Positions 8,671 to 36,648 of a stretch of 38,860 bases of DNA are shown here, piece by piece (position 1 is the first letter of the stretch; each line of letters opens with the position of its first letter). The position numbers and the translations under genes were made by a program. The notes below the pieces were generated by a model that saw only the letters and a list, made by a program, of their open reading frames with translations, made no database searches and had not been told where the DNA came from. Origin of the DNA: a virus (taxonomy: Duplodnaviria > Heunggongvirae > Uroviricota > Caudoviricetes). Where the stretch lies: IMG/VR virus record IMGVR_UViG_2713896899_000004, one strand, 5' to 3'.

Positions 8671-8751
8671 AAAATAAGCGTGGAGAACACCTCCACGCTT
8701 GATTCATTGGTGAAACAACTTTTCTTTTGCCAAACCACAAAAGAAAAACAC

Positions 8752-9933
8752 ATGAGCCTTTATGTTATATCAACATTTAGGTTGGTCACAATATTGCCTG
8801 TTAAAAGTGGAATTATCGTGAGCGAGCTGAAAGAGCTAATTGCCGAATTAGATTTTGAACAATGGTTGGATACTGAAGGTATCGTTTATCGACGTGGAGG
8901 TGTGAGTGCTCGCGGTCGTGAAGTGAATATCAAGGAGTGTCCGGTATGCGGCAGCTCCAACTGGAAGGTATATTTCAATCTGACCAGTGGTGTCGGCAAA
9001 TGCTTTGCTGGTGATCATCCCGAAGAGATTCAGTTCAATAAGCTGGTCTTCCTCAAGCACTACAGCGGCAAATCACGACGACAGTTCGAGGAATATGTGC
9101 AGAACGCCCTTCTTTCCCAGGGGTGGGCACCAAAGAAAGAAGAGATAGTGCTTGCAAGCACAGTCGAGTTAGAGGGACCACTTGCACTCCCTCGTCATTA
9201 CGAACTTCCTATAGATGGCCGTCTTCCAGACTATCTGGTTGAACGAAACATATCGCCTGAAATGGCAAAGTATTTTGACCTACGATACTGCGTCGAAGGT
9301 AAGCACGCATATGTAGATCCGTATACAGATCAGGTTAAAGGACAGATATTCGATATGCGAATACTGATACCGGTTTACGATCTGGATGGGGTAATGAAGA
9401 CATTTCAGGGACGAGACATTACCGGTACAGCAGAACGCCGCTACCTCTTTCCTATGCAGCTTCCAGCTTCAGGTAAGTTTCTCTACAACGGCCATAATGC
9501 GGTCGGCAAACAGACTGTAGTTGTCTGTGAGGGGGCGTTCGATGTTATGGGGGTTAAACGAGCTATTTTTGATGAAGAAACATTACGTGATTACGTGGAA
9601 CCAATAGGAACGTTCGGGATGCATCTATCTGGCAACACCACTCAGGATGCAGAAGATCAGTTGGGCGCGTTCCTGACGCTCAAGGCGCGTGGATTACGTA
9701 ATGTGATCATGATGTGGGATAGTGAAAAGCAAGCTATACGAAACACTATGGCCGCAGCCAGGCGACTGACCAGTATCGGTCTTAATGTCAAAGTTGCGTG
9801 TTTGGGTGAGGAAGGACTCGACCCAGGCGGTGCAACGCCAGAACAAATTATCAAAGCCTATTATCGGGCAAAACCGTATACCAAACAGTTGGAGTTGCAA
9901 AGCAAGGTTTTGGGCATTAAGGCTCTATCGTAA
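8752..9933 (+). CDS. DNA primase (zinc-ribbon plus TOPRIM)
   Basis: CPVCGSSNWKV...C..GDH zinc-ribbon; TOPRIM-like VVVCEGAFD and MMWDSEK. Start uncertain (8680 in track, 8752 after aaaacacATG, or GTG 8818). Confidence 0.55.
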   Translation: MSLYVISTFRLVTILPVKSGIIVSELKELIAELDFEQWLDTEGIVYRRGGVSARGREVNIKECPVCGSSNWKVYFNLTSGVGKCFAGDHPEEIQFNKLVFLKHYSGKSRRQFEEYVQNALLSQGWAPKKEEIVLASTVELEGPLALPRHYELPIDGRLPDYLVERNISPEMAKYFDLRYCVEGKHAYVDPYTDQVKGQIFDMRILIPVYDLDGVMKTFQGRDITGTAERRYLFPMQLPASGKFLYNGHNAVGKQTVVVCEGAFDVMGVKRAIFDEETLRDYVEPIGTFGMHLSGNTTQDAEDQLGAFLTLKARGLRNVIMMWDSEKQAIRNTMAAARRLTSIGLNVKVACLGEEGLDPGGATPEQIIKAYYRAKPYTKQLELQSKVLGIKALS

Positions 9934-10841: not shown

Positions 10842-11324
10842 GTGGCGGTGGTTGTGAAAGCTGATTTGTCAAAAATCCCTTCTATTTCAGGAAATAATGG
10901 TTATTCACTTCGTTGTGAGGAAGTAAAGATAAACGGTGAGTCGGCATACTGCAGCTACTCCGTTTGCCAGCACACCATTCTTGCCTTCAAAGAAAACCGT
11001 CTTCCTCGAACTTCATTCCAGTCGTGCGCAACCGCTATCAAAGCAGGCAAATGCAAGGCGTTAAAAATGATGGTTGAAGAGATTCGTAAAGGAGAATCTC
11101 TGTATTTCGAAGATATGACCGCGCTCATTAAGGAGGTTGAAGAACGGAATAAACAAGCCAGAACTATAAAACGAAAACGTGACAGTGTAACGATTAGTAG
11201 CATGGTTAAGAAGAGCGCCACATCACAAACAGCGATCACTGACGTGTATGCGGCGTTGCTTGAAGAAACAACAAAAGAAACACATGAGCAAATCGATCAA
11301 CATATGGAGGCAAAACAACAATGA
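10842..11324 (+). CDS. Hypothetical protein (Cys-containing N-terminus, coiled-coil C-terminus)
   Basis: ORF ends in an ATGA overlap with the ligase start; start codon uncertain (GTG). Confidence 0.4.
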   Translation: MAVVVKADLSKIPSISGNNGYSLRCEEVKINGESAYCSYSVCQHTILAFKENRLPRTSFQSCATAIKAGKCKALKMMVEEIRKGESLYFEDMTALIKEVEERNKQARTIKRKRDSVTISSMVKKSATSQTAITDVYAALLEETTKETHEQIDQHMEAKQQ

Positions 11325-12643
11325 AAAAGTTGATCGCACTTAAGCATAAGCTGGACGAAATGAAAGCTATGGGAACCAATGCAAAAAAAGAGGCATTGGC
11401 CAACATGGATGACTTTGAACAAAGCATGGTTTCATTGATGCTCAACCCTTTCATCCGTTTTGGGGTAAAGAAATACAAAGTGGCAGAGCCGCTTAGTGAG
11501 TCCGTCCCAAGTGACGAAAAAGCCATTGATGTACTGAATAAGCTGGCCTCTCGCGAGCTGACGGGGAACGCAGCAATAGCAGCTGTTGAGTCTATCGTGG
11601 CGTCAATGTGCGCCGATGGGCAGGACGTGTTCCGTCGTTTCCTCTTAAAAGACCCGAAAGCAGGTGTTGGGATTAGCCTATGCAACAAGGTTTTTGAAAA
11701 TCCCATTCCGAAATTCGAGGTGCAGCTGGCGTCACCGTATAAAGAAAAAGGCGACAAATACCCCTTCAAGCCAAATCCTAAAGCCAAATGGCCGATGATT
11801 GGCAGCCTTAAGCTCGATGGTTTGCGAGTAATTTGTGAGGTTATTGTTGACGAGGAAGAGGTTAACTTCCTTTCTCGTACTGGTAATCCAATCACGTCTC
11901 TCGATCACCTAAAGCCAGCAATGCTCGAATTAGGCAAACTCTCAGGCCACAAACACATCTTCTTCGATGGTGAAGGAACAGCCGGTTCATTTAACCAGTC
12001 CGTATCTGCATTGCGCAAAAAGAACGTGCAGGCAATTGGCGCTATTTATCATGTTTTCGACTTCTTCCTACCGGAATGGCGGGCACAGGCTAAATCCAAA
12101 GAGTATGCAAAGACAGGTATGAAGCTGAAAGAGCGCCTGGCTATGCTCGTGGCGTTGTTCAAAAACGATCGCAGTGAAGGCTACGCACAAGACATTCACC
12201 TGCATCCGTTCTACATCATCCATAGCCACGAAGACTTCATCGAACGCTTCATGAAACGCCTGGACGATAACGAAGAAGGGGAGATGGGCAAAGATCCGAA
12301 CTCTGTTTACGAGTTTAAACGTACCCGCAGCTGGTGGAAGTTAAAAGACGAAGATTCAGAAGATGGTGAAATTATCGACTTTGAGCCGGGCGACCCGGAC
12401 TCTGGTTTTGCCAACACACTTGGAAAAATTGTTATTCGTCTTGAAAACGGCGTCATCGTTCGTGCGAGCGGCATTAAGCATAAATATCTGGACGAGATCT
12501 GGAACAACAAAGAGAAGTACCGTGGTCGTATTGTCGAGGTTCATTGTCACGAGAAAACACCGGACGGCAGCTTACGCCACCCACGACTGAAATGGCCGCG
12601 TTGCTTACGCGATACAGAAGATCGAATCGGAGATAAAGAATGA
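11321..12643 (+). CDS. ATP-dependent DNA ligase
   Basis: Adenylation motif I KxDG present as SLKLDGLRV; 440 aa. Confidence 0.7.
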   Translation: MKKLIALKHKLDEMKAMGTNAKKEALANMDDFEQSMVSLMLNPFIRFGVKKYKVAEPLSESVPSDEKAIDVLNKLASRELTGNAAIAAVESIVASMCADGQDVFRRFLLKDPKAGVGISLCNKVFENPIPKFEVQLASPYKEKGDKYPFKPNPKAKWPMIGSLKLDGLRVICEVIVDEEEVNFLSRTGNPITSLDHLKPAMLELGKLSGHKHIFFDGEGTAGSFNQSVSALRKKNVQAIGAIYHVFDFFLPEWRAQAKSKEYAKTGMKLKERLAMLVALFKNDRSEGYAQDIHLHPFYIIHSHEDFIERFMKRLDDNEEGEMGKDPNSVYEFKRTRSWWKLKDEDSEDGEIIDFEPGDPDSGFANTLGKIVIRLENGVIVRASGIKHKYLDEIWNNKEKYRGRIVEVHCHEKTPDGSLRHPRLKWPRCLRDTEDRIGDKE

Positions 12644-14712: not shown

Positions 14713-14790
14713 CACAGCGTTGAGCGGTTTGGCCTTTTAATCACCCAGATTAAGACTCCGCTAACATAAACCAGACCGCTCAACGCTGTG
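14713..14790. repeat. Long hairpin (about 20-bp stem, 38-nt loop) immediately 3' of tRNA-Ser
   Basis: cacagcgttgagcggt (14713-14728) is the exact reverse complement of 14775-14790. Confidence 0.6.
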
Positions 14791-14864
14791 ATTGACAATT
14801 ACGGCAGACGTTCTTAACCATAGCTTGCTAACATCCTAGCAACACTTTTTTCAGCGCAAAATTC

Positions 14865-14887
14865 AAAGGGGCTTCGGCCCCTTTTTT
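14865..14887. terminator. Bidirectional rho-independent terminator
   Basis: aaaggggc-ttcg-gcccc-tttttt; closes the tRNA island on the plus strand and the minus-strand ORF 14903-16165. Confidence 0.65.
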
Positions 14888-14902
14888 GTTGAACAGTGCA
14901 AT

Positions 14903-16165: not shown

Positions 16166-16339
16166 GTATGTATTTCACTCTACTAACTATAAAATATTAG
16201 GGTAATGTTAACCAAACAATGCCTTAATTAATAGATTGATCGAGGCTTTAATAGCTTTATAATGCAGACTGCAATGATAAGTATGCACATACCTATCTTC
16301 TTTGTAAGTAAAGTTGCATATCAATTCTATGAGGTAACA

Positions 16340-18843: not shown

Positions 18844-20952
18844 ATGTCTAAAAAACGTTCCATCAAAGAGGTTCAGGACTTCCGTGACAGTGTAAAACGA
18901 GTAGTCGCTCTCCTTTCAGGTAAAAACATCCCTGTTGCAGAACGAGGGGACGACGCTTATGTACGCTATAACGATGATGGAGAGCCAATTCTCGTAAACA
19001 TCCCATCAATCCCGGATAACGCAACACCGGCATTGATGAATGCTGTGCGCGGATTTCTCGATCATGAGGTTGCTCACATTTTGTTTACCGATATTCGTGT
19101 GTCCAACAAAATGAGAGAAAAAGGACGCGTTCCTTCCTGGTCGCTATGGAATGCCTTAGAAGACGTGTTCATCGAGCGAAAAATGGGGCAGGTCTTTAAC
19201 GGAACAAGACGTAATCTGATGGCAACTCAGCGCCTTATAATCGAAAAAGTCTTTAAACCAAAGGCTTCAGAGGCTATTGCTTATTGTGGCAAAGATCAGC
19301 GCGCGCTTTTTCTAAACTTCTTTCTCTGTCCGGTTGTAAGAGCCTGGGATGGCCAAGCACCGTTCGTAGATTTCATGGATGAATATTGGCCTGTCATTGA
19401 GAAACCAATTTCATTATTAAAAGAACATGGTATCGATGTGGCCGTGCGTAACATGTCTTGCACCGAGGATTGTGTAAAGGTGGCTGCGACCATAGCTAAG
19501 CTCCTCAAAGACACTGAAAGTGAAAGCAAAGGTAAGGAGTCAGCTCCGGGAAAAACTTCTGATCCTTCAGACGCTGACCAGACGGATGCCTCTGGAGAAA
19601 ACAATGAAGACAACGAAGATCATGAGACACCCTCAGAGATAGATAATCACAAATCTATCAAATCAGAATCACATAGTAAGCACAAGCATGATAATAACGA
19701 CAGTGATGATTCAGATAATTCTGAATCATCAGAAACAATATTCGATGATACAGAAAATGATAAAGAGGTATCAGATTCTGATGCTTCTGATAACGCGGCG
19801 TCAGAATCATTAACCGCTGACCACGAAAAAAGAAAAACGACAGAAGACGGCTCTTCAGATATTCCAACTCCGTCAAAAATGAGTCTGGAAGAGGCTTTAG
19901 AGGAGCTGGATAGCATAGAAGATGAAGTCGGAGGCATGACAGAAGATGCTCTATCCGAAACGATTAAAAGCGAGTTAACAGAAAGCTCGAAAAGCGAATA
20001 CAGGCCATACAATCGCTCATACGACTTCATCGGCTCGATTGATCAGGCAGAAGCCCATATCAAACGGCTTATTAAAACATTCTCCGATATTGATTTAGGA
20101 GGATATCCAATCAGCCGCTATCGCATCGTTCCTGAAGGCAACCAGCTCTTCGACAAATATATTGAAAAGCATCTTTCGTCAGGTGTTTCGTCGACGCTAG
20201 CAAAAGACCTGGAACGTGCAATAGCAAGCAGAAACAGAGTTCAGTTTATACCGGGCCAGCGTCGGGGGCGCATTCATGGCTCTAGTATCTACAGATTAGC
20301 AATGAATGATGATCGCGTGTTTCGTAAAAAAGAGGAATCTAAAGCCGTTAACGCCTGTGTTCAACAAGTGATTGATTTATCGGGTTCAATGAGTGGCGAA
20401 ACGATAAAACTAGCTCTTGCAAGTGCATATACCATCGCCGATGCTCTTGATCGAATAAATGTTCCCAACATTATCACCGGCTTCACTACATTTGGCAGTC
20501 ATCTGGCAGCGATAGAACTTAAGGCTATCAAGTATGAGTTCTCTCGCTTTGAATCTTTAATGCTACCTATCATCAAAAATTGGAATGAAAAAGCAAATTC
20601 TCGCGAAGTTCGCTCACGTATGGGGTGCGTAGGCTACACATTCCCACTTCTTAATAACGTGGATGGTGAAAGCATAGCCAGCCTTGCATCGTTATTTTCC
20701 GGTCGCATGGAGGACAGGAAGATCATGCTTGTTCTGAGCGATGGCGAGCCGCTGGCTGTTGGGAGAGGTTTTGACGCTCATTTGCGTTCGGTTGCGAAGC
20801 AAATTGAAACGCAGACTGACATTGATTTGATGGCAATTGGCATAATGACTGACGCACCGGAGAGATTTTACTCAAATCATGCCCTGGTAACGAGCGTTGA
20901 TAGTCTTGGTTCATCTGTAGTTACTGAACTATCTCGTATCATTTTGAAGTGA
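18844..20952 (+). CDS. von Willebrand factor A (vWA) domain protein with acidic Ser/Asp-rich linker (CobT-like)
   Basis: MIDAS motif DLSGSMSGE and downstream VLSDGEP; long acidic low-complexity segment in the middle; RBS aaaggatt upstream. Confidence 0.6.
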   Translation: MSKKRSIKEVQDFRDSVKRVVALLSGKNIPVAERGDDAYVRYNDDGEPILVNIPSIPDNATPALMNAVRGFLDHEVAHILFTDIRVSNKMREKGRVPSWSLWNALEDVFIERKMGQVFNGTRRNLMATQRLIIEKVFKPKASEAIAYCGKDQRALFLNFFLCPVVRAWDGQAPFVDFMDEYWPVIEKPISLLKEHGIDVAVRNMSCTEDCVKVAATIAKLLKDTESESKGKESAPGKTSDPSDADQTDASGENNEDNEDHETPSEIDNHKSIKSESHSKHKHDNNDSDDSDNSESSETIFDDTENDKEVSDSDASDNAASESLTADHEKRKTTEDGSSDIPTPSKMSLEEALEELDSIEDEVGGMTEDALSETIKSELTESSKSEYRPYNRSYDFIGSIDQAEAHIKRLIKTFSDIDLGGYPISRYRIVPEGNQLFDKYIEKHLSSGVSSTLAKDLERAIASRNRVQFIPGQRRGRIHGSSIYRLAMNDDRVFRKKEESKAVNACVQQVIDLSGSMSGETIKLALASAYTIADALDRINVPNIITGFTTFGSHLAAIELKAIKYEFSRFESLMLPIIKNWNEKANSREVRSRMGCVGYTFPLLNNVDGESIASLASLFSGRMEDRKIMLVLSDGEPLAVGRGFDAHLRSVAKQIETQTDIDLMAIGIMTDAPERFYSNHALVTSVDSLGSSVVTELSRIILK

Positions 20953-21047: not shown

Positions 21048-22283
21048 ATGACTACTACTGCACTGCAAAATGAAAAAAATCCTTCTGATTACCTTGTTTG
21101 CAAGTGGTGCGGAAAATCATTTCACTATTTTAAGTCCCATGTAGCCTATGGTAATTGCGAGGGCATTCCTGAGTCGGTAAAAGATGCCGATCCTGACACC
21201 GTACTGAAAATGTACACAACGCAGTTTCCAGATGAACCAACGCTATCGAAAAAGGCACTTGATGCAATTCAAGCTAAACGTGCCGAGCAAAAAAGCGAAA
21301 TGGCCAAATCTTCTGGTGTGACCAGTAGCCCAGGCTACATAGGCACAGTTGAGTACAAGACAGATCTGGTCGCAGCTCACGAACTGCTAGACGTAACGGT
21401 GGAAGAACTCGGAACAAAACGTGGGACGCCGCTCATGGTTAGCGTCAACGTCAATACGCCGTTTCCAGAGTTCGTTCCTGAAGTGAAGAAGGGCTACGTA
21501 TATGGCGACTTCGAACTGATCAAAGACATTTTCATGATGCTTGAACTTGGCATACCAGGCTATTTGTGGGGACATGCAGGAACAGGCAAATCGTCATTGC
21601 CTACACAGCTATGTGCTTTGCTCAATCGTCCGTTGATCCGTGCCCAACATACAGCATCAATGGAAGAAGCTCATGTTACGGGTCAAATTCTGGCGCGTGA
21701 TGGCTCTACGTATTTCGAGCCAGGCTTGCTTGCGCTCGCAATGAAGCATGGCTGGGTTTACCTCGCGGATGAATACGACTTTGCGTTTCCACAAATTCTT
21801 GGCGTGTATCAGCCAGTGCTGGAAGGTGAAGCGTTGGTCATCAAAGAGGCGACACCAGAATGGCGTCGCATTACTCCGCATAAACGGTTTGCTTTTATTG
21901 GCACTGGCAACACGAACGGATCTGGTGATGAAACCGGCTTGTACCAGGGTACAAACATCCAGAACGCCGCGAACTTTTCGCGTTTTGGCATCGTTTCGAA
22001 TGTGAAATACATGAGCAAAGAGGCAGAGATCAACATGTTGATAAATGCCGGCATTGTGGATGAGTACGCTGAAAAGATGGTTAAGTTTGCCGGTATCGTT
22101 CGCGATGGTTACGAAGAACACAATATCAGCCAACCGATTGGGCCTCGTGAGCTTTTGTTGTCGGCCAAGATTGGAATGATGCGAGGCGACTTTGTGACAG
22201 GTATTGAGCGTTCTTTCATTAACAAACTCCCTTCAGCTTCTGCGCAAGCGGCACGTGAAGTTGTTCAAAAAATATTTGGTTAA
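21048..22283 (+). CDS. AAA+ ATPase (MoxR/CobS-like) with N-terminal Cys/His zinc-finger-like motif
   Basis: Walker A GHAGTGKSS, Walker B VYLADEYDFA; N-terminal CKWCGKSFHYFKSH...C; paired with the upstream vWA protein. Confidence 0.6.
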   Translation: MTTTALQNEKNPSDYLVCKWCGKSFHYFKSHVAYGNCEGIPESVKDADPDTVLKMYTTQFPDEPTLSKKALDAIQAKRAEQKSEMAKSSGVTSSPGYIGTVEYKTDLVAAHELLDVTVEELGTKRGTPLMVSVNVNTPFPEFVPEVKKGYVYGDFELIKDIFMMLELGIPGYLWGHAGTGKSSLPTQLCALLNRPLIRAQHTASMEEAHVTGQILARDGSTYFEPGLLALAMKHGWVYLADEYDFAFPQILGVYQPVLEGEALVIKEATPEWRRITPHKRFAFIGTGNTNGSGDETGLYQGTNIQNAANFSRFGIVSNVKYMSKEAEINMLINAGIVDEYAEKMVKFAGIVRDGYEEHNISQPIGPRELLLSAKIGMMRGDFVTGIERSFINKLPSASAQAAREVVQKIFG

Positions 22284-22463
22284 TCGTGCGTAAAGGATGT
22301 TTCGGCTCTCTTATCGCTGCTTCTGAAACTGGTAAGGCTTGTCTGGTGTGCCCAGACAAGCCCGATTGTCACCAATCAGCAAAAGAAGTTGCGATTTCGA
22401 TGCACGGGAAGTTCGTAGGCTTCCCAAATGACAAAATCAAAAAAACCAGAAAGGTAAAAACAC

Positions 22464-25400
22464 ATGAAGGCACTGATGGTTCGAACTGACTTCTCACTTG
22501 GGGAGTCGGCTCTAAAAGCAGAAAACGCGGTGAAGATTGCCAGAGAAGCTGGCTACACCGCTGTAATTTCAGCAGATAGCATGAATATTGCGAGTGTTAT
22601 TCCACTACAACGTGCCGCTGGTGACGACATGGCGGTTATTTGTGGTGTGAAACTAAACATCGTTGATGATCCCACATACGAGCACCGGGCTAAACTTGCT
22701 AAAGAATCTAAGGGATGTATGGAATCATTAGAGCGAGGACGTAACTACTCGTTTACCGCTCTAATTAAAAATGAGCAAGGATATCGCGACATCTGCGAAC
22801 TAATGACGGTGGCCAACACACGAGAACAGTTCTACTTTGTACCGCGTCTCTCGCTCGAACAGTTGGTTTCTACATATGCCAAAGGCAACATCATCCTGCT
22901 CACTTCCGACATCGGTAGCGTGTTCCAACGCAACGATTTTGCAAAAATCATAAGCACACTGATTACAGCGGGTGGAAAAGACAACTTCTATAGTGTGGTT
23001 TATCCGCACCCTACCCCATTCTACGACCAGATTAACGTCCGGGCGATGAAAGTCGCCAGCGCACTGAAAATAGAGCCAGTAGCGTTCTATCCCGCTTATT
23101 ACGAATCGATCGACGATGCAGACATTAAAGACATTGCGCACATGGTTACGAACAACATCAAAATCGACCAGCCGCATCGTCTGCGTATCCCCCACCAGCG
23201 AGATAACGCCGTCAATGGTCGCCGCCATCTCCTTGAGGCGCTGAAAGCCTTCTCCGTTCGCATGGATGTGCCGGTAACAGCTGCAATGGCCTCAACAACG
23301 CAGGATACCATTATCGATGCCTGCACATGGCGCTGGCATGAATTGCCACCAGCACTGCCAAAGATGGCAGACGACGAGCCTGCAACGCTGATGAAACTGG
23401 CCGTTGCTGGGCTGCGTAAACGTCTTACCACAAAAGAGTTTGGCTACACACCACCGGCTTCTGAGAACAGGATTTATGTTGAACGGCTTAAGTACGAAAT
23501 GGACACGCTGACTCGCCTGGGATTTTGTGGTTACTTCCTGATGGTACGCGATCTGATGAATCACAGCCGTGAAACTGGCATTCCTGTCGGGCCTGGTCGT
23601 GGTTCCTCTGCCGGTTCTCTGGTGGCGTGGTGCATAGGCATAACCAACGTCGACCCAATCCGTCACGGTCTTCTGTTTGAGCGTTTCATCAACCCTGAGC
23701 GTCTCGACTTGCCGGATGCGGACTTGGACTTCAGCCAGGCACGTCGCCATGAGGTGATCGAGTATCTGAATGAACGCTACGGCGAAGATTACGTTGCAGG
23801 CATTCCGAACTTCACCTACCTGGGCGCAGCCTCTGCACTACGTGACACCGCTCGTATTTATGGTGTGGAGTCCGCAGATATGGCGGTATCAAAAGAACTG
23901 AAGAACGTCGAGGATGATAGCCTTCCATTGGAAGAACTGCGCGAACAACTGGCAAGTCTCGACAAATACGCAACAAAATATCCTGATGCATTCAATGCAG
24001 CCTGCAAGTTACAAAGCCTTATGCGTGGCTTTGGTAGACATGCGGCAGGGATGATCGTAGCAGGTGTTCCTCTGACAGAACGCACACCGGTTGAGCGCCG
24101 TGGTGACGCGCGTTGTATCGCATTTGACAAGCGTTACTGCGAGGCTATGGGCCTAATTAAGCTGGACGTGCTTGGCCTGGCAACTCTCGATTTGCTCGAT
24201 AGTGCAAAACGCTACATAAAAGAGAACACAGGTGAAGATATCAATCTTGATGCCATTTCTCTTGAGGATCGCAAGGTGCTGGATGGTTTTGCTGCTGGGT
24301 ACACTCAAGGTGTTTTCCAGCTTGAATCAGGCCCAATGCGCAAGCTGCTTAAAGATTTAGGTGGTGGAATTGAGCCAATGAGCTTTAAAACGGTTGTTGC
24401 TACGACTGCGCTCTTCCGGCCGGGGCCAATTCAGTCAGGCATGTTGGATGATTATGTTTCTGTCGCCAAAGGCTTTATGACGCCGGAATCATTACACCCC
24501 GTTCTTGATGAACTTACCGCAGAAACAAATGGCGTGATTCTCTATCAGGAACAGACGATGAACGCGACTCGATTGCTTGCTGGCTTCACAATGGCTGAAG
24601 CTGACGGTGTTCGTAAAGCGATCGGCAAAAAAGACATGGAAAAAATGAAGAGCATGGGCGAGAAGTTCATCGTTCAGGCTCAAGCTGGCTGGATAGACGT
24701 TGAGCTGGAAGATGGCACTACACAGCGCATTCACCGTGCGGAACATTTTAAATGCGAAGACGGAACTCTGAAAACTGTCGAAGAGGCACTTGAGTACGGC
24801 GCAAAACTACCTATAAACGCAGTACGCGTTACAGCGTCACATCCAGGGCTATCAGAGATGAAAGCGAAGGAGATCTGGACCGCATTCGAAAAGAATGGTG
24901 CCTACCAGTTCAACAAATCACACTCTGTTGCTTACTCCTTAATCAGTTATCAATCTATGTGGTTGAAAACTCATTATCCCGCAGAGTTTTTCGCTGCTGC
25001 TCTCACTATTCTTGGCGAAGATAAACACCAGGGGCTGGTTAAAGATGCGCTGACCTATGGTATTCGCGTATTGCCACCAGACGTTAACGTGTCATCTAAC
25101 CGAATCGAGATCCGCACGCTTGAAGATGGCAGCCAGGTGCTGTATGCGCCCTTCTCTGCTGTGAAAGGTTGTTCTGAGAATGGCTGCCAGGCCATCATGA
25201 GAGCGCGAGAAAAAGTTGGCGGCAAATTCGAGTCACTGGCGCAATTCGAAGAAGCTGTCGAGAAACGTGCCTGTAATAGTCGAGTGTGCGAATCACTGCA
25301 AAAAGTAGGGGCGTTTGCATCCATCGAGCCAGGTAGTCTGCCAGCAACTGATCCAGAGCGTCTCCGCGACCAAGCTGAATTGATGGGAAACCTTGTCATA

Positions 25401-25982
25401 GACGCAGTTAAAGCCTCACGTCCGTTTGAGATGAACCCCAAACGTTCGGCTGAGATTAACGTGCTCATGACACGGATGGCGGCTGAAATGGGATTAGGTG
25501 ATGAACTAATCCGCCCTAGCATTGGCATTAAGCCGAAAATCATGATCATTCTGGACAATGCAAACGGCAATGATGCTCGAACCGGTTACTTTATGGAGAA
25601 CGGATACGACGATTTTAAGGCCAAGCTGTTGACGGCTGGGGATTTGCGCATGGGCGATCTCTATGTCACAGGCGTTTGCAAAAAGGTGAAAGACAAAGAA
25701 AAGGACTACACCAAAGACGAGATCGGCCAGTTCACCGACTTTATGCGTGAAGAGATCAATCTGGTGCGCCCGACCTATGTGCTGACGTGTGGCAGCCGGG
25801 CAACGGCATTGTTTAACAACAAAAACAAGCCATCCGATTTGGTCGGCAGGAAGGAGTACCTTCCAGACCTTGACGTTACTGTCTTTTACGGGTTTAACCC
25901 CAACATTCTTTACTTCAGACCTGAAGAGGGAGAACGACTAGAAGCGATATTAGCCGACGTAGCAGAAACCATTAAGACGTGA
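22464..25982 (+). CDS. dnaE: DNA polymerase III alpha subunit (family C, DnaE type)
   Basis: 1172 aa; GPGRGSSAGSLVAWCIGITNVDPI ... FERFINPERLDLPDADLDF matches the DnaE palm/catalytic region; PHP-like N-terminus. Confidence 0.8.
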   Translation: MKALMVRTDFSLGESALKAENAVKIAREAGYTAVISADSMNIASVIPLQRAAGDDMAVICGVKLNIVDDPTYEHRAKLAKESKGCMESLERGRNYSFTALIKNEQGYRDICELMTVANTREQFYFVPRLSLEQLVSTYAKGNIILLTSDIGSVFQRNDFAKIISTLITAGGKDNFYSVVYPHPTPFYDQINVRAMKVASALKIEPVAFYPAYYESIDDADIKDIAHMVTNNIKIDQPHRLRIPHQRDNAVNGRRHLLEALKAFSVRMDVPVTAAMASTTQDTIIDACTWRWHELPPALPKMADDEPATLMKLAVAGLRKRLTTKEFGYTPPASENRIYVERLKYEMDTLTRLGFCGYFLMVRDLMNHSRETGIPVGPGRGSSAGSLVAWCIGITNVDPIRHGLLFERFINPERLDLPDADLDFSQARRHEVIEYLNERYGEDYVAGIPNFTYLGAASALRDTARIYGVESADMAVSKELKNVEDDSLPLEELREQLASLDKYATKYPDAFNAACKLQSLMRGFGRHAAGMIVAGVPLTERTPVERRGDARCIAFDKRYCEAMGLIKLDVLGLATLDLLDSAKRYIKENTGEDINLDAISLEDRKVLDGFAAGYTQGVFQLESGPMRKLLKDLGGGIEPMSFKTVVATTALFRPGPIQSGMLDDYVSVAKGFMTPESLHPVLDELTAETNGVILYQEQTMNATRLLAGFTMAEADGVRKAIGKKDMEKMKSMGEKFIVQAQAGWIDVELEDGTTQRIHRAEHFKCEDGTLKTVEEALEYGAKLPINAVRVTASHPGLSEMKAKEIWTAFEKNGAYQFNKSHSVAYSLISYQSMWLKTHYPAEFFAAALTILGEDKHQGLVKDALTYGIRVLPPDVNVSSNRIEIRTLEDGSQVLYAPFSAVKGCSENGCQAIMRAREKVGGKFESLAQFEEAVEKRACNSRVCESLQKVGAFASIEPGSLPATDPERLRDQAELMGNLVIDAVKASRPFEMNPKRSAEINVLMTRMAAEMGLGDELIRPSIGIKPKIMIILDNANGNDARTGYFMENGYDDFKAKLLTAGDLRMGDLYVTGVCKKVKDKEKDYTKDEIGQFTDFMREEINLVRPTYVLTCGSRATALFNNKNKPSDLVGRKEYLPDLDVTVFYGFNPNILYFRPEEGERLEAILADVAETIKT

Positions 25983-26107: not shown

Positions 26108-26539
26108 ATGATCACCGATATTTACGAGAAAATAATGTCTGATCTCGAGTTTGACCGAGACAATCTGGAGGAAGTCTGGCGTAGACAACCCCGCCTTTTA
26201 ATGGAGTATGGCTCAAAACTCGCTCATGCAGAAAGAAGTGTCGCAGAGGCAAAACTTAACCTTGAAGCTGTTGAAGCAAAGCTATACGACACAGAGCGTA
26301 AGAACTTGAGTATGAACGGCATTAAGTTCAACGAGTCTGTACTGGACGCTAAGGTTAAAACAAACCCACAGTATCTGTCTAAACGGCAGAAGTTGGATGA
26401 AGCACGGCACATCGCAGACATATACAAACATGCTGTCGCCGCCTTTTCGCATCGCCGAGACATGATCGTTCAGGCGTCGAAGATGGCCATCGTTGAGTTA
26501 GATCGATTAGGCTCTGAACGCTTTATTACTCCCCGTTGA
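26108..26539 (+). CDS. Hypothetical coiled-coil protein (possible UvsY-like recombination mediator)
   Basis: 143 aa; loose pattern resemblance to T4 UvsY and position beside SSB and recombinase genes; weak. Confidence 0.35.
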   Translation: MITDIYEKIMSDLEFDRDNLEEVWRRQPRLLMEYGSKLAHAERSVAEAKLNLEAVEAKLYDTERKNLSMNGIKFNESVLDAKVKTNPQYLSKRQKLDEARHIADIYKHAVAAFSHRRDMIVQASKMAIVELDRLGSERFITPR

Positions 26540-26656: not shown

Positions 26657-27679
26657 ATGTCTAAGACATTACTTGATTTGCTTAACAAAACTCGTGAAGA
26701 CATTGCCGCCAAACGTGGCAAAAACACTGATTTGACCCGCTTAAAAGACGGCATCAACTATATCCGCATCTTCCCTAATAAAGACGACCCGAATGGTAAG
26801 TTCTTCCAGACTTTTGGTATGCACTACATTAAGTATCAGAACGAGGAAGGTAAAGAAGCAACCAATGCTTATATTTGTGAGCAACATACTCACGGTCGCG
26901 CTTGTCAGCTATGCGAAATGGTGATGGAAGGTCGCGCTCGTCACAAGGGTAACAAAGCAATGGAAGAGCGCATCGGTCAAATGCGTGCAACCCCTCGCTA
27001 CCTGGTAAACGGCATTCTTTCAACTCGTGAGGATTTCTCCGATGCAGAGAAATGTCAGTTAATCGAACTGCCTTCCACTGTGTTCGATGATATCTGCAAA
27101 GCAATCACCGAAGACATCGCTGACGATATCGGCAATCCATTAAGCAAAGAGGAAGGTTACGCATTTCAAATTAAGCGCACAGGCTCTGGTCGCGATACAG
27201 AATATGACGTTTCACCAAAACGTAAAGTCTTCAAAGGTGATATCGAAGATAAATTCTGGAACAACCAACATGACCTGATTGCTTATGTGAATCAGGCCGA
27301 TGAAACTCGCCTTCTTGCGACAGTTCGCACTATGGGTCGTCTGATTGGCATCGCTGCACCAACTGCCACTGCATCGGCACCAGCAATTTCCTCAACAGCG
27401 AAAACATCGGCCTCTGCACTGCCTGGATTTGGCTCGATCACTGGTCATACGGAAGGAGCGACGGCTGTAGCAACCGCCCACACTCCAGCTTCTGAACCAA
27501 CCAGTCTGGTTGATGAAGAAGTCCTGCGAGCAATGGAATCTGAATTTAAATCAGAAACAAGTTCTGCTGCCGCATCAGCCAAAGAGTCTGAAGCAGACGC
27601 AACGACATCTGTAGCAGCCGCATCTGCGGCGGAAGATGAAGGTATTGATGACCTGCTGAAAGAACTGGAGTCTCTGTAA
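26657..27679 (+). CDS. Putative ssDNA-binding protein (gp32-like) with Ala/Ser/Thr-rich linker and acidic C-terminal tail
   Basis: Cys/His cluster (CEQHTHGRACQLC), flexible low-complexity linker and acidic tail EDEGIDDLLKELESL typical of SSB C-termini. Confidence 0.45.
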   Translation: MSKTLLDLLNKTREDIAAKRGKNTDLTRLKDGINYIRIFPNKDDPNGKFFQTFGMHYIKYQNEEGKEATNAYICEQHTHGRACQLCEMVMEGRARHKGNKAMEERIGQMRATPRYLVNGILSTREDFSDAEKCQLIELPSTVFDDICKAITEDIADDIGNPLSKEEGYAFQIKRTGSGRDTEYDVSPKRKVFKGDIEDKFWNNQHDLIAYVNQADETRLLATVRTMGRLIGIAAPTATASAPAISSTAKTSASALPGFGSITGHTEGATAVATAHTPASEPTSLVDEEVLRAMESEFKSETSSAAASAKESEADATTSVAAASAAEDEGIDDLLKELESL

Positions 27680-27688: not shown

Positions 27689-28684
27689 GTGACCAGTAAG
27701 GCGTCTACGGACGCCTTACTTTTTGGAAGGAATGTACCGGTGAATTATCTCTTCGTAGATGGCAATAGCCTGGGTTATTACCACCAACAATCTGACAAAT
27801 TGCACAACGGCGAAATGGAAGTACAGGCTGCTTTCGGCTTTGTTAAGAACGTCCGTCGTTATGCCTCCATCCTCCATGCCCGACCTATGATTCTTTGGGA
27901 TGGATTTAGTGACAAGCGTCGCGACTTTTACCCGGACTACAAAGCAAATCGCGACGACGATCCTGATATGAAAAAGATGAAGGAAGGCTTTGCTGTCCAG
28001 AAGCCATACATCCTCAAAATGATGACCGCGCTTGGTGTTAACCAAATCATTGCAAAAGATGCAGAAGCGGATGATCTGGCCGGGCTGCTGGTATCCCGCA
28101 TGGCACCGCAGCCAACCGTTGAACACATCTATCTGTTAACAGGCGATAGCGACTGGCTTCAGTTAGTTCGCGAAAACGTAAGCTGGGTAAGCCTGCGTGA
28201 AGACGCCAAAAACAAGCAGGTTAATTTTGAGCAATTTGCGGAGCTGACAGGATTCGCCACGCCTCGCGCATTTTTGGAAGCAAAAGCATTACAAGGCGAT
28301 AACTCGGACAACATTAGCGGTGTTGGTGGCATTGGTGCTGGCGGCGCGAAAGAGCTGCTGCATGAATGGGGAAGTGTCGCAACGATGGTACGCGGCATCA
28401 ACGACGGCTCAATCGTGGTTAATAAAGGGCGTCATAAGACCGCCTTCAACAAACTAGCGAAGAATGCCTTCAACGAGAAAACAGGCTGTCGAATGCTCGA
28501 AGCGTTCAAGAGAAACATCACGCTAATGAACCTGATTGAGACGAAGTTTCCGCCTACCGAAATCGAAACAATCAAAGGCAATCGTGACGTGAAAGCATTC
28601 GAGCAACTGTGCTATGAGCTGAATTTCCGTTCGTTCCTTGAAGACCTTGAAGTGTTTGTTCTTCCATTCGAAAGGTATTGCTAA
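27689..28684 (+). CDS. 5'-3' exonuclease / flap endonuclease (FEN family)
   Basis: LFVDGNSLGYY near the N-terminus, GDSDWLQL and a helix-hairpin-helix segment LQGDNSDNISGVGGIGAGGAKELL; start may be GTG 27740. Confidence 0.7.
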   Translation: MTSKASTDALLFGRNVPVNYLFVDGNSLGYYHQQSDKLHNGEMEVQAAFGFVKNVRRYASILHARPMILWDGFSDKRRDFYPDYKANRDDDPDMKKMKEGFAVQKPYILKMMTALGVNQIIAKDAEADDLAGLLVSRMAPQPTVEHIYLLTGDSDWLQLVRENVSWVSLREDAKNKQVNFEQFAELTGFATPRAFLEAKALQGDNSDNISGVGGIGAGGAKELLHEWGSVATMVRGINDGSIVVNKGRHKTAFNKLAKNAFNEKTGCRMLEAFKRNITLMNLIETKFPPTEIETIKGNRDVKAFEQLCYELNFRSFLEDLEVFVLPFERYC

Positions 28685-28952: not shown

Positions 28953-30026
28953 ATGGCAAAAGGAAAATCCGCACTGGCACTTGCTCTGAAAAAGAAAATC
29001 GGTAGCAACGACGAAATTCAGAAAGTAACCCATTGGATTGACACAGGCTTTCCTCCGTTAAACAAAGCTATTTCAGGTCGTTACGATGGCGGTTTCCCAT
29101 GTGGTCGTATCGTAGAAGTATTCGGGCCGCCAAGCGCGGGGAAAACCTTTTTGGCAACAGCAGCAATGATCTCCGCTCAGAAACAAGATGGTCTGGCGGT
29201 ATTCCTCGATCATGAGAACAGTTTTGACGTTGGCCTGGCGGTAGCCAATGGCCTGAATGCAGATGAGGATGACGGCCAGTGGGTATACAAGCAGCCTGAT
29301 ACCTTCGAAGACTCTGTAGAGTTGATCGGCACAATACTTAAATTGGTACGTGATGAAGAGCTTATCCCTGAATCAGCACCTATCTGTATCGTGGCTGACT
29401 CACTTGCGTCTATGGTTCCGAACTCCAAAGCCGAGAAGTTCGAAAAGATGGCTGAAGGCACTGCCAAAGACAAAGATCAGCTAAACATGAACGACAATAC
29501 GGCGCTTGCTCGTGCGACGAGCGCGAACTTCCCCACTCTGTCTTTGTGGGCACGCAAATATAACGCCTGCATCATCTTCTTGAATCAGGTTCGCACAAAA
29601 ATCGGTGTAATGTTTGGCGACCCTACGACGTCACCAGGCGGCGATTCACCGAAGTTTTACGCTTCTGTGCGCATCCGTCTCGGTGCATCGGTGATGAAGG
29701 ATGGTAAAGAGAAGATCGGTCAGGACGTAGGCGCAGAGTGCATCAAAAACAAAGTTGCACCACCGTATGGCAAATGCACCTGGAAATTCTACTTCGATCC
29801 TACTCGTGGCCTCGACGTTATCGAATCGCTCGTCGAGTACATGCTGGATGAAGGATACCTGCCAAAGAACGCCAGCGGGCGCGTAGAAATTGGTGACAAG
29901 AAATACACCAAATCACAGATCGTCGAGATGTATCGGGAGAAGCCACTAGCTGAAATCATTGCGGCTTTACAGGCAATCGACGACCGGAGATCAAAAGACA
30001 ATCCCACCGAGTCAGTAGAAGAGTAA
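28953..30026 (+). CDS. RecA/UvsX-family recombinase
   Basis: Walker A GPPSAGKTFLA; FLNQVRTKIGVMFGDPTTSPGGDSPKFYASVRIRLG closely parallels the RecA loop L2 region; RBS aaaggag. Confidence 0.75.
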   Translation: MAKGKSALALALKKKIGSNDEIQKVTHWIDTGFPPLNKAISGRYDGGFPCGRIVEVFGPPSAGKTFLATAAMISAQKQDGLAVFLDHENSFDVGLAVANGLNADEDDGQWVYKQPDTFEDSVELIGTILKLVRDEELIPESAPICIVADSLASMVPNSKAEKFEKMAEGTAKDKDQLNMNDNTALARATSANFPTLSLWARKYNACIIFLNQVRTKIGVMFGDPTTSPGGDSPKFYASVRIRLGASVMKDGKEKIGQDVGAECIKNKVAPPYGKCTWKFYFDPTRGLDVIESLVEYMLDEGYLPKNASGRVEIGDKKYTKSQIVEMYREKPLAEIIAALQAIDDRRSKDNPTESVEE

Positions 30027-34898: not shown

Positions 34899-35432
34899 CA
34901 CCGCTGACAGCATACACAATCAACTGCCGCTGATAGCATATCGAGAGTCTATCTCACCGCTCACAGCATACTTTACTCGATTTTTTACCGCTGACAGCAT
35001 ACTTAAGACATTGCATGAATAATGTGTACCGGTATGGGTATAACCAGAACAAAATTACCGCTGGCAGCATACGAAGGTCTGACATATGCCATTAATTACC
35101 GCTGATAGCATATCCAAACAAAAATTCCTCAATAAAACACCGCAGACAGCATACGTTCTATCAGGGAGCAGCAGGCAATAAATGCCTTTCACTACAAGCA
35201 ATCAGCGCAATAGCAATAGAATGTTAGTGAGCGCAAACCTATATGGAATGCACTCTTCGAGGTTAGTAACCACTGGGGAGGTATGACAGAGCATTGAGTG
35301 GTGATAGATGATTTACCGCTCACAGCATACGTTCATCTCACTAGACCGCTGGTAGCATATCTTTAACCGTTCACAGCATACTTTTCAGAAAAATAGCCGC
35401 TGATAGCATACATTTCACCGCTGACAGCATAT
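34899..35432. repeat. Iteron array, about 12 copies of a 17-bp repeat (consensus yACCGCTGACAGCATAC), downstream of rep (copy-control, incA-like)
   Basis: Copies read at 34899, 34924, 34955, 34986, 35056, 35097, 35138, 35314, 35344, 35365, 35395 and 35416, in both orientations with irregular spacing. Confidence 0.8.
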
Positions 35433-36526
35433 CAAAGCAGTTTGAGACTATTGGAAAGGATCTCAATCATCTTGATATTTTCAGGCGTCAAATTCTGCGA
35501 AAGTTCAGTTATCTTGTTGATAATGTTCTGTTTAGCATCAATTTCCCCGGCTTTCTCATCTGGTTTTTTGGGTTCGATGTCTTCAGGTTTTGGCGGTGCG
35601 ACTTTAAGTTTTGGATTGCGGCTATGAATCTGGATATAGATCGACCGCCCTCGCTTAATCTCGCTGTATTCGAGATAGCCCAAATCTTGGAGAGCTTTTA
35701 AGCCGTTACGTATAGTCTGATTCTGCGAGCTTACATTCCTGCTACTCAAATTGAGTCGCGCACGCAATCGAGCAAGCGATACCGGCGCAGGCTTGGTTGG
35801 AAGACTTTCGATGAAGGTGTACAGAGCCTGTGCTGTTTCTTTGCGTGGTAGCTTATTGATAACCTTTAACTGCAAAAGAACCTTATGGTCAAAGCGATAT
35901 AGTTCGGCCAGCTTCGGTTCTGCATAGAACACCACCGTATCTTTCTGCTCGTTGTAGTCCACGCTATTGATGAGGTGCACCATCAGAAGCGAGATCTTGT
36001 TAGAGCCGTCGACGTTCTTTTCTTCATACGTTCTCTGGAAAGACAGAGTTGTACGCATGATCTTCAAAAGACTGTTTGTAAGCCGGTCGCGGAGTGTTTT
36101 GCGGATCTGTGACGATGGATAGCCACAAAACTTCGCAAATTTCGTGATGCTTAACTCGACACGACCGTTAGGTTCGCCGTATTCTGCCAGCGAACGCACA
36201 ACGCCCACCCACGTTTTGAAATCATGATCCATGTCGAGACGAGGACCGGTTATCTTGATATCGGAATAGCCTTCAGAACGGGCTACTTCGAGCTGAACAA
36301 GCTCCTTTGAAGCATCGATCTCATTTGGCTTGTTACGCTTGCTGTATTTTGTCCCCTTGAGCGTGGGCACGAACAACCCCAGCCGCATCAACGCAATTGG
36401 TTGGACTGTATTGTTGCTATTAGGGACAAGTTCCCCTGTGTACAATTCAAGGGAACCTTCTTCAAAGTTGTCGAGATTATCTTCTACTTCTTTGTTATTT
36501 TTACCTTTTTTATTTTTTGTGGACAT
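35432..36526 (-). CDS. Iteron-binding replication initiator (Rep, plasmid RepA-like)
   Basis: Gene sits between two iteron arrays. Start set at internal ATG (36526) with RBS aaagg, because the track's 40-aa N-terminal extension reads through iterons. Basic protein, Arg/Leu-rich C-terminus. Confidence 0.6.
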   Translation of the reverse strand: MSTKNKKGKNNKEVEDNLDNFEEGSLELYTGELVPNSNNTVQPIALMRLGLFVPTLKGTKYSKRNKPNEIDASKELVQLEVARSEGYSDIKITGPRLDMDHDFKTWVGVVRSLAEYGEPNGRVELSITKFAKFCGYPSSQIRKTLRDRLTNSLLKIMRTTLSFQRTYEEKNVDGSNKISLLMVHLINSVDYNEQKDTVVFYAEPKLAELYRFDHKVLLQLKVINKLPRKETAQALYTFIESLPTKPAPVSLARLRARLNLSSRNVSSQNQTIRNGLKALQDLGYLEYSEIKRGRSIYIQIHSRNPKLKVAPPKPEDIEPKKPDEKAGEIDAKQNIINKITELSQNLTPENIKMIEILSNSLKLL

Positions 36527-36545
36527 GTGGACACCTTTGTCATTC

Positions 36546-36648
36546 AACCGCTGACAGCATACTTGATTTGCCGCTGGCAGCATACCAAAAACAGTTGGCA
36601 GCATACGGCGAACCGTTGACAGACTATCAATTACCGCTGGCAGCATAC
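36546..36648. repeat. Iteron array, 4-5 copies of the same 17-bp repeat, upstream of rep (origin iterons)
   Basis: Copies at 36546, 36569, 36592 (degenerate), 36611 (degenerate) and 36632. Confidence 0.75.

Follow-up and report, generated by a model that had tools for sequence, protein, structure and literature searches.

The viral DNA analysed here, IMG/VR record IMGVR_UViG_2713896899_000004 (38,860 nt; hereafter the window), carries a gene for a family-C DNA polymerase that is not a canonical full-length DnaE: a uracil-DNA glycosylase (UDG)-like fold stands in for the OB fold and the tau-binding C-terminal domain (CTD). Judged by its collinearity with sequenced relatives, the window is a slice of ~38 kb, about a third, of a ~108-kb SSU5-type phage-plasmid. 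A conserved motif in the flexible tether ahead of the UDG-like tail lies where the alpha subunit of E. coli has its clamp motif, which suggests that the polymerase uses the beta clamp of the host, and the element is predicted to encode an epsilon-like exonuclease but no clamp or clamp loader.

We favour, with modest confidence that is a little better than even, a combined reading of these features. The polymerase would be the catalytic subunit of the phage-plasmid's own replisome, together with a DnaB-like helicase, a DnaG-like primase, a gp32-like single-stranded DNA-binding protein (SSB), a ligase and a flap exonuclease. Proofreading would be provided in trans by the epsilon-like protein, as in proteobacterial DnaE1 with an inactive PHP domain, and processivity would depend on the beta clamp of the host, which the host's own clamp loader would load and the linker motif capture. 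The UDG-like tail would not be a uracil glycosylase but a DNA- or protein-binding module at the OB/CTD position, so that the enzyme would not be tethered to host tau. This replisome would serve mainly lytic-cycle replication, with the plasmid state initiated at a RepA/iteron origin, and a 51-residue insertion in the fingers domain would be the leftover of a split-gene cassette.

Domain organization and active site of the polymerase

The polymerase open reading frame (ORF) and its parts were located as follows (aa, residue numbers of the predicted protein).

22464..25982, + strand: dnaE-type family-C DNA polymerase ORF, ATG start, 1172 codons
22464..23363, + strand: PHP domain with degenerate metal site (Pfam PF02811, aa 6-176, 6e-13)
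23388..24176, + strand: palm/NTPase core with the catalytic Asp residues (PF07733, DNA_pol3_alpha, aa 309-571, 9e-74)
24183..24683, + strand: fingers domain (PF17657, aa 574-740, 3e-44)
24687..24839, + strand: 51-aa fingers insertion (GWIDVELEDG...INAVRVTAS), aa 742-792
25059..25328, + strand: (HhH)2 / beta-binding-domain region (PF14579, HHH_6, aa 866-955, 8e-17)
25359..25397, + strand: linker motif RLRDQAELMGNLV, candidate beta-clamp-binding, aa 966-978 (QAELM, 970-974)
25419..25979, + strand: family-4-UDG-like C-terminal domain with degenerate catalytic motifs, aa ~986-1172

A purine-rich AAAGG lies ~10 nt 5' of the start codon, and the DNA of the ORF is ~97% identical to the gene that is annotated in the Escherichia phages PhiR41_1 and Cyrano as 'DNA polymerase III alpha subunit', a name already given to this gene in all annotated relatives. 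All four Pfam domains exceeded their gathering cutoffs, the helix-hairpin-helix (HhH)2 region aligned to Taq DnaE 789-946, and the NCBIfam superfamily model TIGR00594 was passed with 633 bits against a cutoff of 434. The initial annotation had called the ORF a family-C (DnaE) polymerase, and this assignment was upheld, as the profile search kept it in the DnaE family and the domain-level check found PHP, palm and fingers among the four domains. The nearest solved structures were those of Taq, M. tuberculosis and E. coli DnaE (E=1e-109 to 1e-122), and the match to PolC among solved-structure sequences was far weaker (1e-11). The catalytic acidic motifs were kept as PDADLDFS (aa 417-424; D418 and D420) and IKLDVLGL (aa 565-572; D568), in which the three Asp residues align with Taq DIDTDFS and KMDFLGL and have D401, D403 and D555 as their E. 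coli counterparts. We conclude that the ORF is a real gene for a polymerase of family C, DnaE type, with a predicted intact polymerase active site.

The window polymerase thus resembles E. coli and Taq DnaE1 in its PHP, palm, thumb, fingers and (HhH)2 domains and in its catalytic Asp triad, but differs from them in lacking the OB fold and tau-binding CTD, in carrying the UDG-like tail and the 51-aa fingers insertion, and in a score below the equivalog level. No cellular-DnaE equivalog model of NCBIfam was passed, the best of them, DnaE1 model NF004226, reaching 680 bits against a cutoff of 1002. Homology to the solved DnaE structures ended at ~aa 953. The earlier description of a 'full-length DnaE' therefore applies to the core up to this residue but not beyond it, where the UDG-like domain is found instead of the OB fold and CTD; both the tail and the fingers insertion had been overlooked.

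A different role for the gene, as cargo encoding an error-prone, DnaE2-like translesion polymerase rather than a replicase, could be argued weakly from the match to the 'error-prone DNA polymerase' model NF004225 (400 bits) and from a UmuD/LexA-like S24 peptidase on the element. However, the DnaE1-type models score higher (680 bits), neither imuA nor imuB is present, and the gene sits in a helicase-primase-SSB-ligase module kept across distant lytic and temperate phages, so that we give this explanation hardly any credence. A DnaE2-type mutasome was likewise rejected, given the absence of imuA/imuB and the lower model scores.

A UDG-like fold at the C-terminus

When the last 220 residues were compared with the PDB by phmmer, the top four matches were all family-4 UDGs, with E-values of 0.06-0.24. 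The family-4 UDG model TIGR00758 matched the tail at E=1.4e-8 with 34.6 bits, below its cutoff of 125.3, and the Pfam UDG model gave 15 bits, below its cutoff of 24.3. An AlphaFold2 model of the tail built with a 63-sequence alignment had a predicted local distance difference test score (pLDDT) of 90.5 and a predicted template modelling score (pTM) of 0.83; a single-sequence run on aa 913-1172 had given a pLDDT of 35. Foldseek matched this model to 4zbx of S. tokodaii (E=1.1e-11, template modelling (TM) scores 0.70/0.79) and also to 1l9g of T. maritima, 1ui0 of T. thermophilus, 1vk2 and UdgX, the family-4 UDGs and UdgX falling at 1e-11 to 1e-10 and TM ~0.7-0.8, and TDG and MUG ranking lower, at ~1e-6. 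The model thus predicts that the tail has the alpha/beta fold of family-4 UDGs, with which it also shares Y-x-T in strand beta2, the K of 'KCRPP' and the P of motif B.

The tail differs from family-4 UDGs in being fused to a polymerase and in its catalytic motifs. Motif A, GE[AG]PG, has become x-D-x-[PA]-x among the tail homologues (LDNAN in the window), with the Asp invariant in all 63. The His of motif B is replaced by Asn in 36 and by Ser in 21 of the 63 homologues and is kept in none (FNPN in the window), and the Phe of 'PFVG' is variable. In place of the 'KCRPPxNR' loop, which holds an Fe-S Cys and the uracil-recognising Asn, there is a Lys-rich loop, KKVKDKEKD, within which K1073 and K1076 are invariant. 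The window tail contains no His and two Cys, and all four 4Fe-4S Cys ligands of family-4 UDGs are gone.

These losses bear on whether the tail might be an active DNA glycosylase, for uracil or for another or modified base, that couples excision to the fork as UNG2 does at eukaryotic forks. Such a role would be in keeping with the UDG-superfamily fold, which was obtained at high confidence, and with the genes for thymidylate synthase, DHFR, RNR and MazG/dUTPase that the replication module also carries. A database label points the same way: NCBI names fragments 'uracil-DNA glycosylase'. The invariant Asp of motif A and the conserved N/S-P at motif B are moreover reminiscent of the His-less sites of MUG and TDG; they count against the non-enzymatic tail that we favour, and on the strength of these residues some glycosylase activity may remain. 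However, the motif-B His, the uracil-stacking Phe, the Asn of CRPPxNR and all Fe-S Cys are missing, and the TIGR00758 score is far from its cutoff. We therefore consider an active glycosylase improbable, and prefer a tail that would bind DNA or protein without excising bases.

The combination of DnaE with a C-terminal UDG domain has already been described by Timinskas et al. (NAR 2014; PMC3919608), as 'DnaEX' on pHCM2-type plasmids of Salmonella enterica and Yersinia pestis. For RHEph10 gp048, too, the GenBank note includes 'uracil-DNA glycosylase-like'. 'DnaEX', SSU5 gp052 and the window polymerase belong to the same family and share one layout, PHP-Pol3-(HhH)2 followed by a PF03167 archaeal-type UDG domain in place of OB and CTD. 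The window tail is 95% identical to that of SSU5, whose ORF is equally long (3519 nt), and nothing essential differs between them; the window gene is an E. coli allele. The gene and its odd architecture are thus known, both from annotated genomes and from that paper, which is confined to the architecture. Not covered there are the degenerate state of the UDG motifs, the motif in the linker, the reach of the clade among other phages and the split alleles. These points, together with the re-fused allele, are incremental additions, of which no description was found in the literature searched.

A candidate clamp-binding motif in the linker

Between the HhH domain and the UDG fold the AlphaFold2 model has a segment of ~30 residues with low pLDDT, and this segment holds RLRDQAELMGNLV. 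The motif has the form R-x-x-x-Q-x-E-L-[ML]-P-G. In a profile alignment of 99 diverse representatives, Arg was kept in 95, Gln in 91, Glu or Asp in 69, Leu, Phe or Tyr in 87, Met, Leu, Ile or Val in 94 and Pro in 85, and the motif was also conserved in the 63-homologue alignment. Its Q-x-E-L-[ML] portion fits the consensus of clamp-binding pentapeptides, QL[SD]LF. The clamp motif of E. coli alpha, 920-QADMF-924, lies just past the HhH domain (PMC3201878), and the window polymerase has its Q-initiated hydrophobic motif at the analogous position, directly after the HhH region. Strong conservation of a short motif within a disordered tether, in phages of Enterobacteria, Pseudomonas, Rhizobium and Stenotrophomonas, would be expected if it bound the conserved pocket of the host beta clamp. 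We therefore regard the motif as a candidate binder of that clamp, and its place in a flexible tether at the position of the clamp motif of alpha suggests that the polymerase uses the clamp. Against this interpretation, the motif is followed by P-G-L and is predicted to be partly helical, so that it may serve to join domains or to dock a protein instead of binding the clamp.

Such a role belongs with a clamp-independent replicase, in which the UDG-like tail would itself be the processivity device, gripping or encircling DNA ahead of or behind the active site, and the linker motif would be a mere hinge or docking element. For the UDG-like domains on the family-A polymerases of SPO1 and T5, a possible role as intrinsic processivity factors has been proposed, with vaccinia D4/A20 as the model (PMC3201878, from the same research group as Timinskas et al.). 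The N-terminal domains of the SPO1 and T5 enzymes, like vaccinia D4 with A20 (the processivity factor of E9; PMC3201878), resemble the window tail in that a UDG-superfamily domain is coupled to a viral replicative polymerase, and all of these viruses, as well as the window element, lack a sliding clamp of their own. The window tail differs in being attached to a polymerase of family C rather than A or B and in its C-terminal position, where it replaces OB and CTD; in addition, vaccinia D4 retains glycosylase activity whereas the tail lacks the canonical residues, and a processivity role for the tail is only putative. A clamp-independent enzyme is also consistent with the element encoding no clamp or loader, as is general among phage family-C polymerases, and with a tail that is well folded, conserved clade-wide despite the loss of its catalytic residues, and furnished with the invariant K1073 and K1076 in a Lys-rich loop. 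However, the tail is not basic overall (27 K+R vs 30 D+E, roughly neutral), which gives no special support for DNA binding and so tells also against the DNA-binding role that we allow it; host clamps are freely available; and Q-x-E-L-[ML] is ~90% conserved in a flexible linker at the clamp-motif position of DnaE. We judge clamp independence possible yet unlikely, and retain capture of the host clamp as the preferred explanation of the motif.

Proofreading, clamp and clamp-loader functions

The initial annotation had noted, from RTDFSLGES (aa 7-15), that the PHP region lacks His-x-His, and alignment to Taq and M. tuberculosis DnaE agreed: Taq H-L-H-Q-H-T-Q-F-S aligns with A-L-M-V-R-T-D-F-S. Relative to those two enzymes, H-x-H is changed to M/R, TDH to ADS and GYE (GxE) to GVK, and the later ligands His, Cys, Asp and His are changed to Ser, Asp, Pro and Tyr; among the ligand positions that align, the sole conservative change is Asp to Glu (E14). 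The nine-residue metal site of PHP-proofreading DnaE of the Taq/M. tuberculosis type is thus not present. Identical substitutions were found in nickie, RHEph10, BUCTxx99 and B1VFA, so that the degeneration is a feature of the clade. No DnaE1 of the alpha-, beta- or gamma-proteobacteria has kept the full set of nine ligands, and epsilon of E. coli docks on the PHP domain (PMC3919608). The loss of the metal site is accordingly not unusual; with its predicted inactive site, the window PHP domain resembles that of proteobacterial DnaE1, which uses epsilon.

An epsilon-like protein of 185 aa, with an RNase_T/DEDDh domain (Pfam RNase_T, 2.5e-21), is annotated as 'Pol III epsilon' in Cyrano (CYRAN_77) and in PhiR41_1, where its gene is found ~11 kb to the right of the window.

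L014:11107-11664: epsilon-like exonuclease of PhiR41_1, 185 aa, RNase_T/DEDDh
L002:25756-26313: epsilon-like exonuclease of Cyrano, 185 aa, RNase_T/DEDDh

Orthologues are found in CMS-2020a (98% identity), Klebsiella SSU5-likes (81%), Rhizobium phages (40-44%) and Pseudomonas phages nickie and ZY21 (39-40%), in the same genomes as this type of polymerase. All DEDDh motifs are intact, and the protein stops at the end of the catalytic domain. It is this ending that speaks against trans proofreading: beyond the catalytic domain E. coli epsilon has a linker, a clamp motif and a peptide that binds alpha, and all of these are absent, so that the protein, unlike the epsilon of DnaE1, has no C-terminal alpha-binding tail. 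Through this C-terminal segment E. coli epsilon binds the PHP domain, and an association of the 185-aa epsilon-like protein with this DnaE is only putative.

Within the window, no dnaN, dnaX/holA/holB or dnaQ homologue was found by Pfam and PHROGs searches of ~37 ORFs or by local tblastn, in agreement with the initial annotation that neither a clamp or clamp-loader gene nor a dnaQ-like gene is recognisable there. The lack of clamp and loader genes extends to the annotation of the complete genome of Cyrano (108,379 bp), and no Pfam match to a clamp or loader was obtained in ten of its larger hypothetical proteins. Ten small ORFs flanking dnaE in five relatives likewise matched no Pfam family of clamp, loader, theta, chi or psi proteins. 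As tblastn queries, E. coli DnaN, validated by a 100% match, and E. coli DnaX gave nothing below E=0.9 in 365 kb, comprising the window, complete Cyrano, 32 kb of PhiR41_1 and the loci of nine relatives. A divergent clamp may exist among the many hypothetical proteins, which would weigh against borrowing from the host. Kazlauskas and Venclovas found a beta homologue in 1 of 28 phage genomes with a family-C polymerase, that of Bacillus phage 0305phi8-36 only (PMC3201878), so phage polymerases of this family normally come without a clamp gene. By these searches, then, the element encodes an epsilon-like exonuclease but no clamp or clamp loader, and the proofreading subunit reported as missing is a window-edge artefact.

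The CobS-like AAA+ and CobT-like VWA pair, a constant neighbour of dnaE, was considered as a hidden clamp loader and rejected. The ATPase is of the AAA_5/MoxR type and occurs in 494 phage records, mostly cyanomyoviruses with a family-B polymerase; because of its type and its wide distribution in PolB-using cyanophages it is not read as a clamp loader.

Separately, a sequence 100% identical to E. coli dnaN is present in the Campylobacter phage A18a record MG065686.1 (H128), and the left part of the window has matches in 16 'Campylobacter' phage records; these records probably contain E. coli-derived sequence.

It had been presumed that the polymerase recruits host accessory subunits, which in its strict form makes it a stand-alone alpha that replaces host DnaE in the host Pol III holoenzyme and borrows epsilon, tau with the clamp loader, and beta. 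The window taken by itself, with no accessory genes, and a PHP domain degenerate as in the epsilon-binding alpha of E. coli would fit this. However, because the tau-binding CTD and OB fold are missing, the enzyme cannot simply take the place of alpha in the host holoenzyme; an epsilon-like protein, a helicase, a primase and an SSB are encoded by the element itself; and the NF004226 score is 680 against a cutoff of 1002. We regard replacement of host DnaE in this form as very unlikely. What survives of the presumption is the host beta clamp, made plausible by the linker motif, and not the borrowed proofreading subunit, which the element encodes.

An insertion in the fingers domain and split alleles

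Neither Taq DnaE nor the polymerases of nickie, RHEph10, BUCTxx99 and B1VFA have the 51-aa fingers insertion. Most relatives of the tail in databases are proteins of 380-400 aa (HHH_6 plus UDG) that start with M-K-[IV] exactly at the insertion, and in their contigs dnaE is present as two ORFs with a homing-endonuclease gene between them, at a position equivalent to window aa 776-788 in all five loci below.

L010, SSU5-like: N-piece 787 aa; 231-aa NUMOD4/HNH endonuclease (L010:5284-5979); C-piece 389 aa
L011, distant relative: N-piece 786 aa; 257-aa HNH_3 endonuclease (L011:6241-7014); C-piece 383 aa
L012, distant relative: N-piece 812 aa; 256-aa protein, HNH-like by eye (L012:6244-7014); C-piece 385 aa
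L013, distant relative: N-piece further broken; 232-aa NUMOD4 protein (L013:6306-7004); C-piece 393 aa
L015, nickie-like: N-piece further broken by an intein; 166-aa protein (L015:5504-6004); C-piece 398 aa

At least three unrelated endonuclease families (NUMOD4+HNH_3, HNH_3 and a third HNH-like type) thus occupy one site of dnaE in different lineages. In L010 the N-piece aligns to window aa 1-776 (86%) and the C-piece to aa 788-1170 (93%), and the window insertion corresponds to the C-terminal extension of an N-piece (G-[WYF]-[VI]-x-[VL]-x-L-x-D-G-x4-[VI]-H...) fused to the leader of a C-piece. The flanks of L015 are 92% identical to nickie, but identity falls to 63% over the ~130 residues ahead of the split, which include a window-like extension; horizontal transfer therefore carries the extension along with the split site. 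Among the representatives, at least 29 are full-length without the extension (YQEQ-to-FNKSH spacing 70-71) and at least 28 are C-pieces, and only P0124, the window's own cluster, is full-length with it (spacing 126). The window dnaE is a rare allele, a single uninterrupted ORF with no endonuclease gene at the homing site. On the simplest reading, the window/SSU5 allele descends from a split gene whose two parts were secondarily re-fused in frame once the endonuclease had been lost; alternatively, the endonucleases may target a pre-existing insertion.

Genes in pieces created by free-standing homing endonucleases reportedly include nrdA of Aeromonas phage Aeh1, split by mobE, and the split gp43 polymerases of some T4-like phages; cyanobacteria have a split-intein dnaE. 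In relatives of the window element dnaE is likewise in pieces, being broken within the fingers domain, with an HNH gene between the two ORFs and co-transferred flanks, whereas the window allele is uninterrupted. The split site lies ~25 aa upstream of the cyanobacterial intein site, and the extension plus leader (~50 aa), unlike a split intein, is too short for a Hint fold and has no splicing residues. An intein was rejected as the identity of the window insertion, which has only ~50 aa and no Cys/Ser/Thr-...-HN splicing residues and is translated within a single ORF. No earlier description of the split dnaE was found in the literature with the search terms tried, which does not prove that there is none.

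A genuine additional intein with a nested HNH domain is present in the dnaE of some relatives (L013:2596-6246; L015:1998-5504), in L015 directly after VFQFES of the VFQFESG fingers motif and with a C...HN signature followed by S, and in these intein-bearing relatives the polymerase gene is chopped into four to five called ORFs. In P0011 (391 aa; window aa ~940 onward), a NUMOD4/HNH_3 endonuclease ORF runs in frame into the UDG-like tail, which indicates a second homing site at ~aa 940, the HhH/tail boundary, in some SSU5-like elements.

The phage-plasmid and its relatives

Window 16329-38789 corresponds to Cyrano (OV696614) 39825-64372, with matches of ~96-97% to the Escherichia phages Cyrano, PhiR41_1 and CMS-2020a, and window 1170-14888 corresponds to Cyrano 26656-39448 (96.6% identity). 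Both blocks are collinear with Cyrano, a phage-plasmid of 108,379 bp, over its positions 26656-64372, and also with PhiR41_1, CMS-2020a and SSU5, the identity to SSU5 being 79-81%; these genomes measure 103-109 kb. With this collinearity, a RepA initiator with iterons and a ParA encoded beside phage genes in the window, the element has the features of an SSU5-type phage-plasmid, and the polymerase, first seen as unusual cargo for a 39-kb element, belongs instead to the core genes of a phage-plasmid of ~108 kb that encodes a helicase, primase, SSB, ligase and flap exonuclease of its own. The genes of the window that surround it are listed below.

7330..8670, + strand: DnaB-like replicative helicase (PF03796; Cyrano annotation)
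8680..9933, + strand: DnaG-like primase, Toprim (Cyrano annotation)
11321..12643, + strand: ATP-dependent DNA ligase (PF01068)
14247-14710: tRNA genes Asn-GTT, Thr-TGT and Ser-TGA, the same three annotated in Cyrano
14903-16165, - strand: 420-aa ORF (phrog_18168; no Pfam match)
18844..20952, + strand: CobT-like VWA protein, conserved upstream neighbour (PF11775, 3e-82)
21048..22283, + strand: CobS-like MoxR-type AAA+ ATPase (AAA_5), conserved upstream neighbour (PF07728, 1.7e-15; phrog_249)
22286..22489, + strand: 67-aa ORF overlapping the dnaE start by 26 nt (phrog_6337), conserved in SSU5-likes (SSU5_051)
26108-26539: weakly UvsY-like ORF (phrog_231, 1e-4)
26657..27679, + strand: T4 gp32-like single-strand DNA-binding protein (PF08804, 6e-65)
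27689..28684, + strand: 5'-3' (flap) exonuclease (PF02739, PF01367)
28953..30026, + strand: RecA-like recombinase (PF00154)
34900-35435 and 36547-36651: iterons ACCGCTGACAGCATAC flanking repA, at least 12 copies of ~16-19 bp, some 21 bp apart
35432..36646, - strand: RepA (Rep3) plasmid initiator (PF01051)

The repA gene and its iterons form a classic iteron-controlled plasmid origin within the window. Cyrano is a functional phage-plasmid maintained at ~5.5 copies per cell, induced by ciprofloxacin and packaged in siphovirus virions, and the polymerase is not among the genes expressed above prophage background in the transcriptome table of its lysogen (PMC9928086), which lends weak support to a lytic-cycle role.

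A tblastn search with the tail matched 32 phage records. It lies there within ORFs called 'Pol III alpha', in genomes of 103-122 kb or, for one Klebsiella record, 84 kb; the exceptions are JGB6 and one stand-alone UDG of a fecal contig. The tail-bearing phages are SSU5-likes, Pseudomonas nickie and hairong, Stenotrophomonas BUCTxx99 and ANB28, and Rhizobium RHEph10, RHph and B1VFA. A word-indexed homologue search with the tail alone returned six near-identical fragments; a five-sequence profile was used instead. An exhaustive profile search of 1.84 billion representatives yielded 118 clusters at E<=1e-30, after which scores fall into ordinary UDGs. The replication and recombination module is syntenic from the enterobacterial SSU5-likes to ~110-kb phages of Pseudomonas, Rhizobium and Stenotrophomonas, with the order DnaB, primase, ligase, CobT, CobS, small ORFs, DnaE::UDG, SSB, flap exonuclease, RecA and SbcCD.

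Some further observations concern this neighbourhood. The CobT/CobS pair lies directly upstream of dnaE in every clade member examined (e.g. L003:13277-16678; L004:12008-15850), nickie, RHEph10 and L010-L013 included, and none of the loci examined has a cobN gene. The 67-aa ORF matches the N-terminal part of the 222-aa PHROG phrog_3616, and other clade members have ORFs of ~126-200 aa without known domains directly upstream of dnaE. In the Xanthomonas phage JGB6 (L006:12001-12576) the tail homologue is in an ORF annotated 'AAA family ATPase', and dnaE and many neighbours are broken into many small ORFs, which suggests a frameshift-rich sequence; this record was not used. The stretch at 14889-16329, right after the tRNA genes, is of low GC content (~36-39%), is absent from Cyrano at that position and looks like a variable cargo insertion. 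RecA has 780 aa in Cyrano (L002:5065-7404) and 357 aa in the window, suggesting that the Cyrano gene holds an intein or other insertion and that mobile elements have moved through the replication module on further occasions. A UmuD/LexA-like S24 peptidase is also carried by the element.

Implications

The proofreading gene lay beyond the boundary of the window, and calls of absence made from a 39-kb slice are thus unsafe. More tentatively, and with much less confidence than in the favoured reading set out at the start, the dead UDG fold may be a new accessory module of C-family polymerases, and the extension plus leader a self-association module that has been re-fused in the window allele. If the former is true, the tail would provide intrinsic processivity or act as a template 'read-ahead' sensor at the place where OB meets the single-stranded template, and together with a linker that binds the host clamp it would yield a replicase with no need for a tau-containing clamp loader at the fork. 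If the latter is true, the extension and leader of ~50 aa, travelling with homing endonucleases, would let the polymerase work as two polypeptides.

The mechanistic interest lies in a putative replisome whose DnaE has a presumably dead UDG fold and no tau-binding or OB domain, whose epsilon is truncated and which has neither clamp nor loader. The natural one-piece and two-piece family-C polymerases of the clade could show how such enzymes cope with a split in the fingers domain. SSU5-like phage-plasmids, the elements in which this polymerase resides, are common in clinical Enterobacteriaceae and carry resistance genes.

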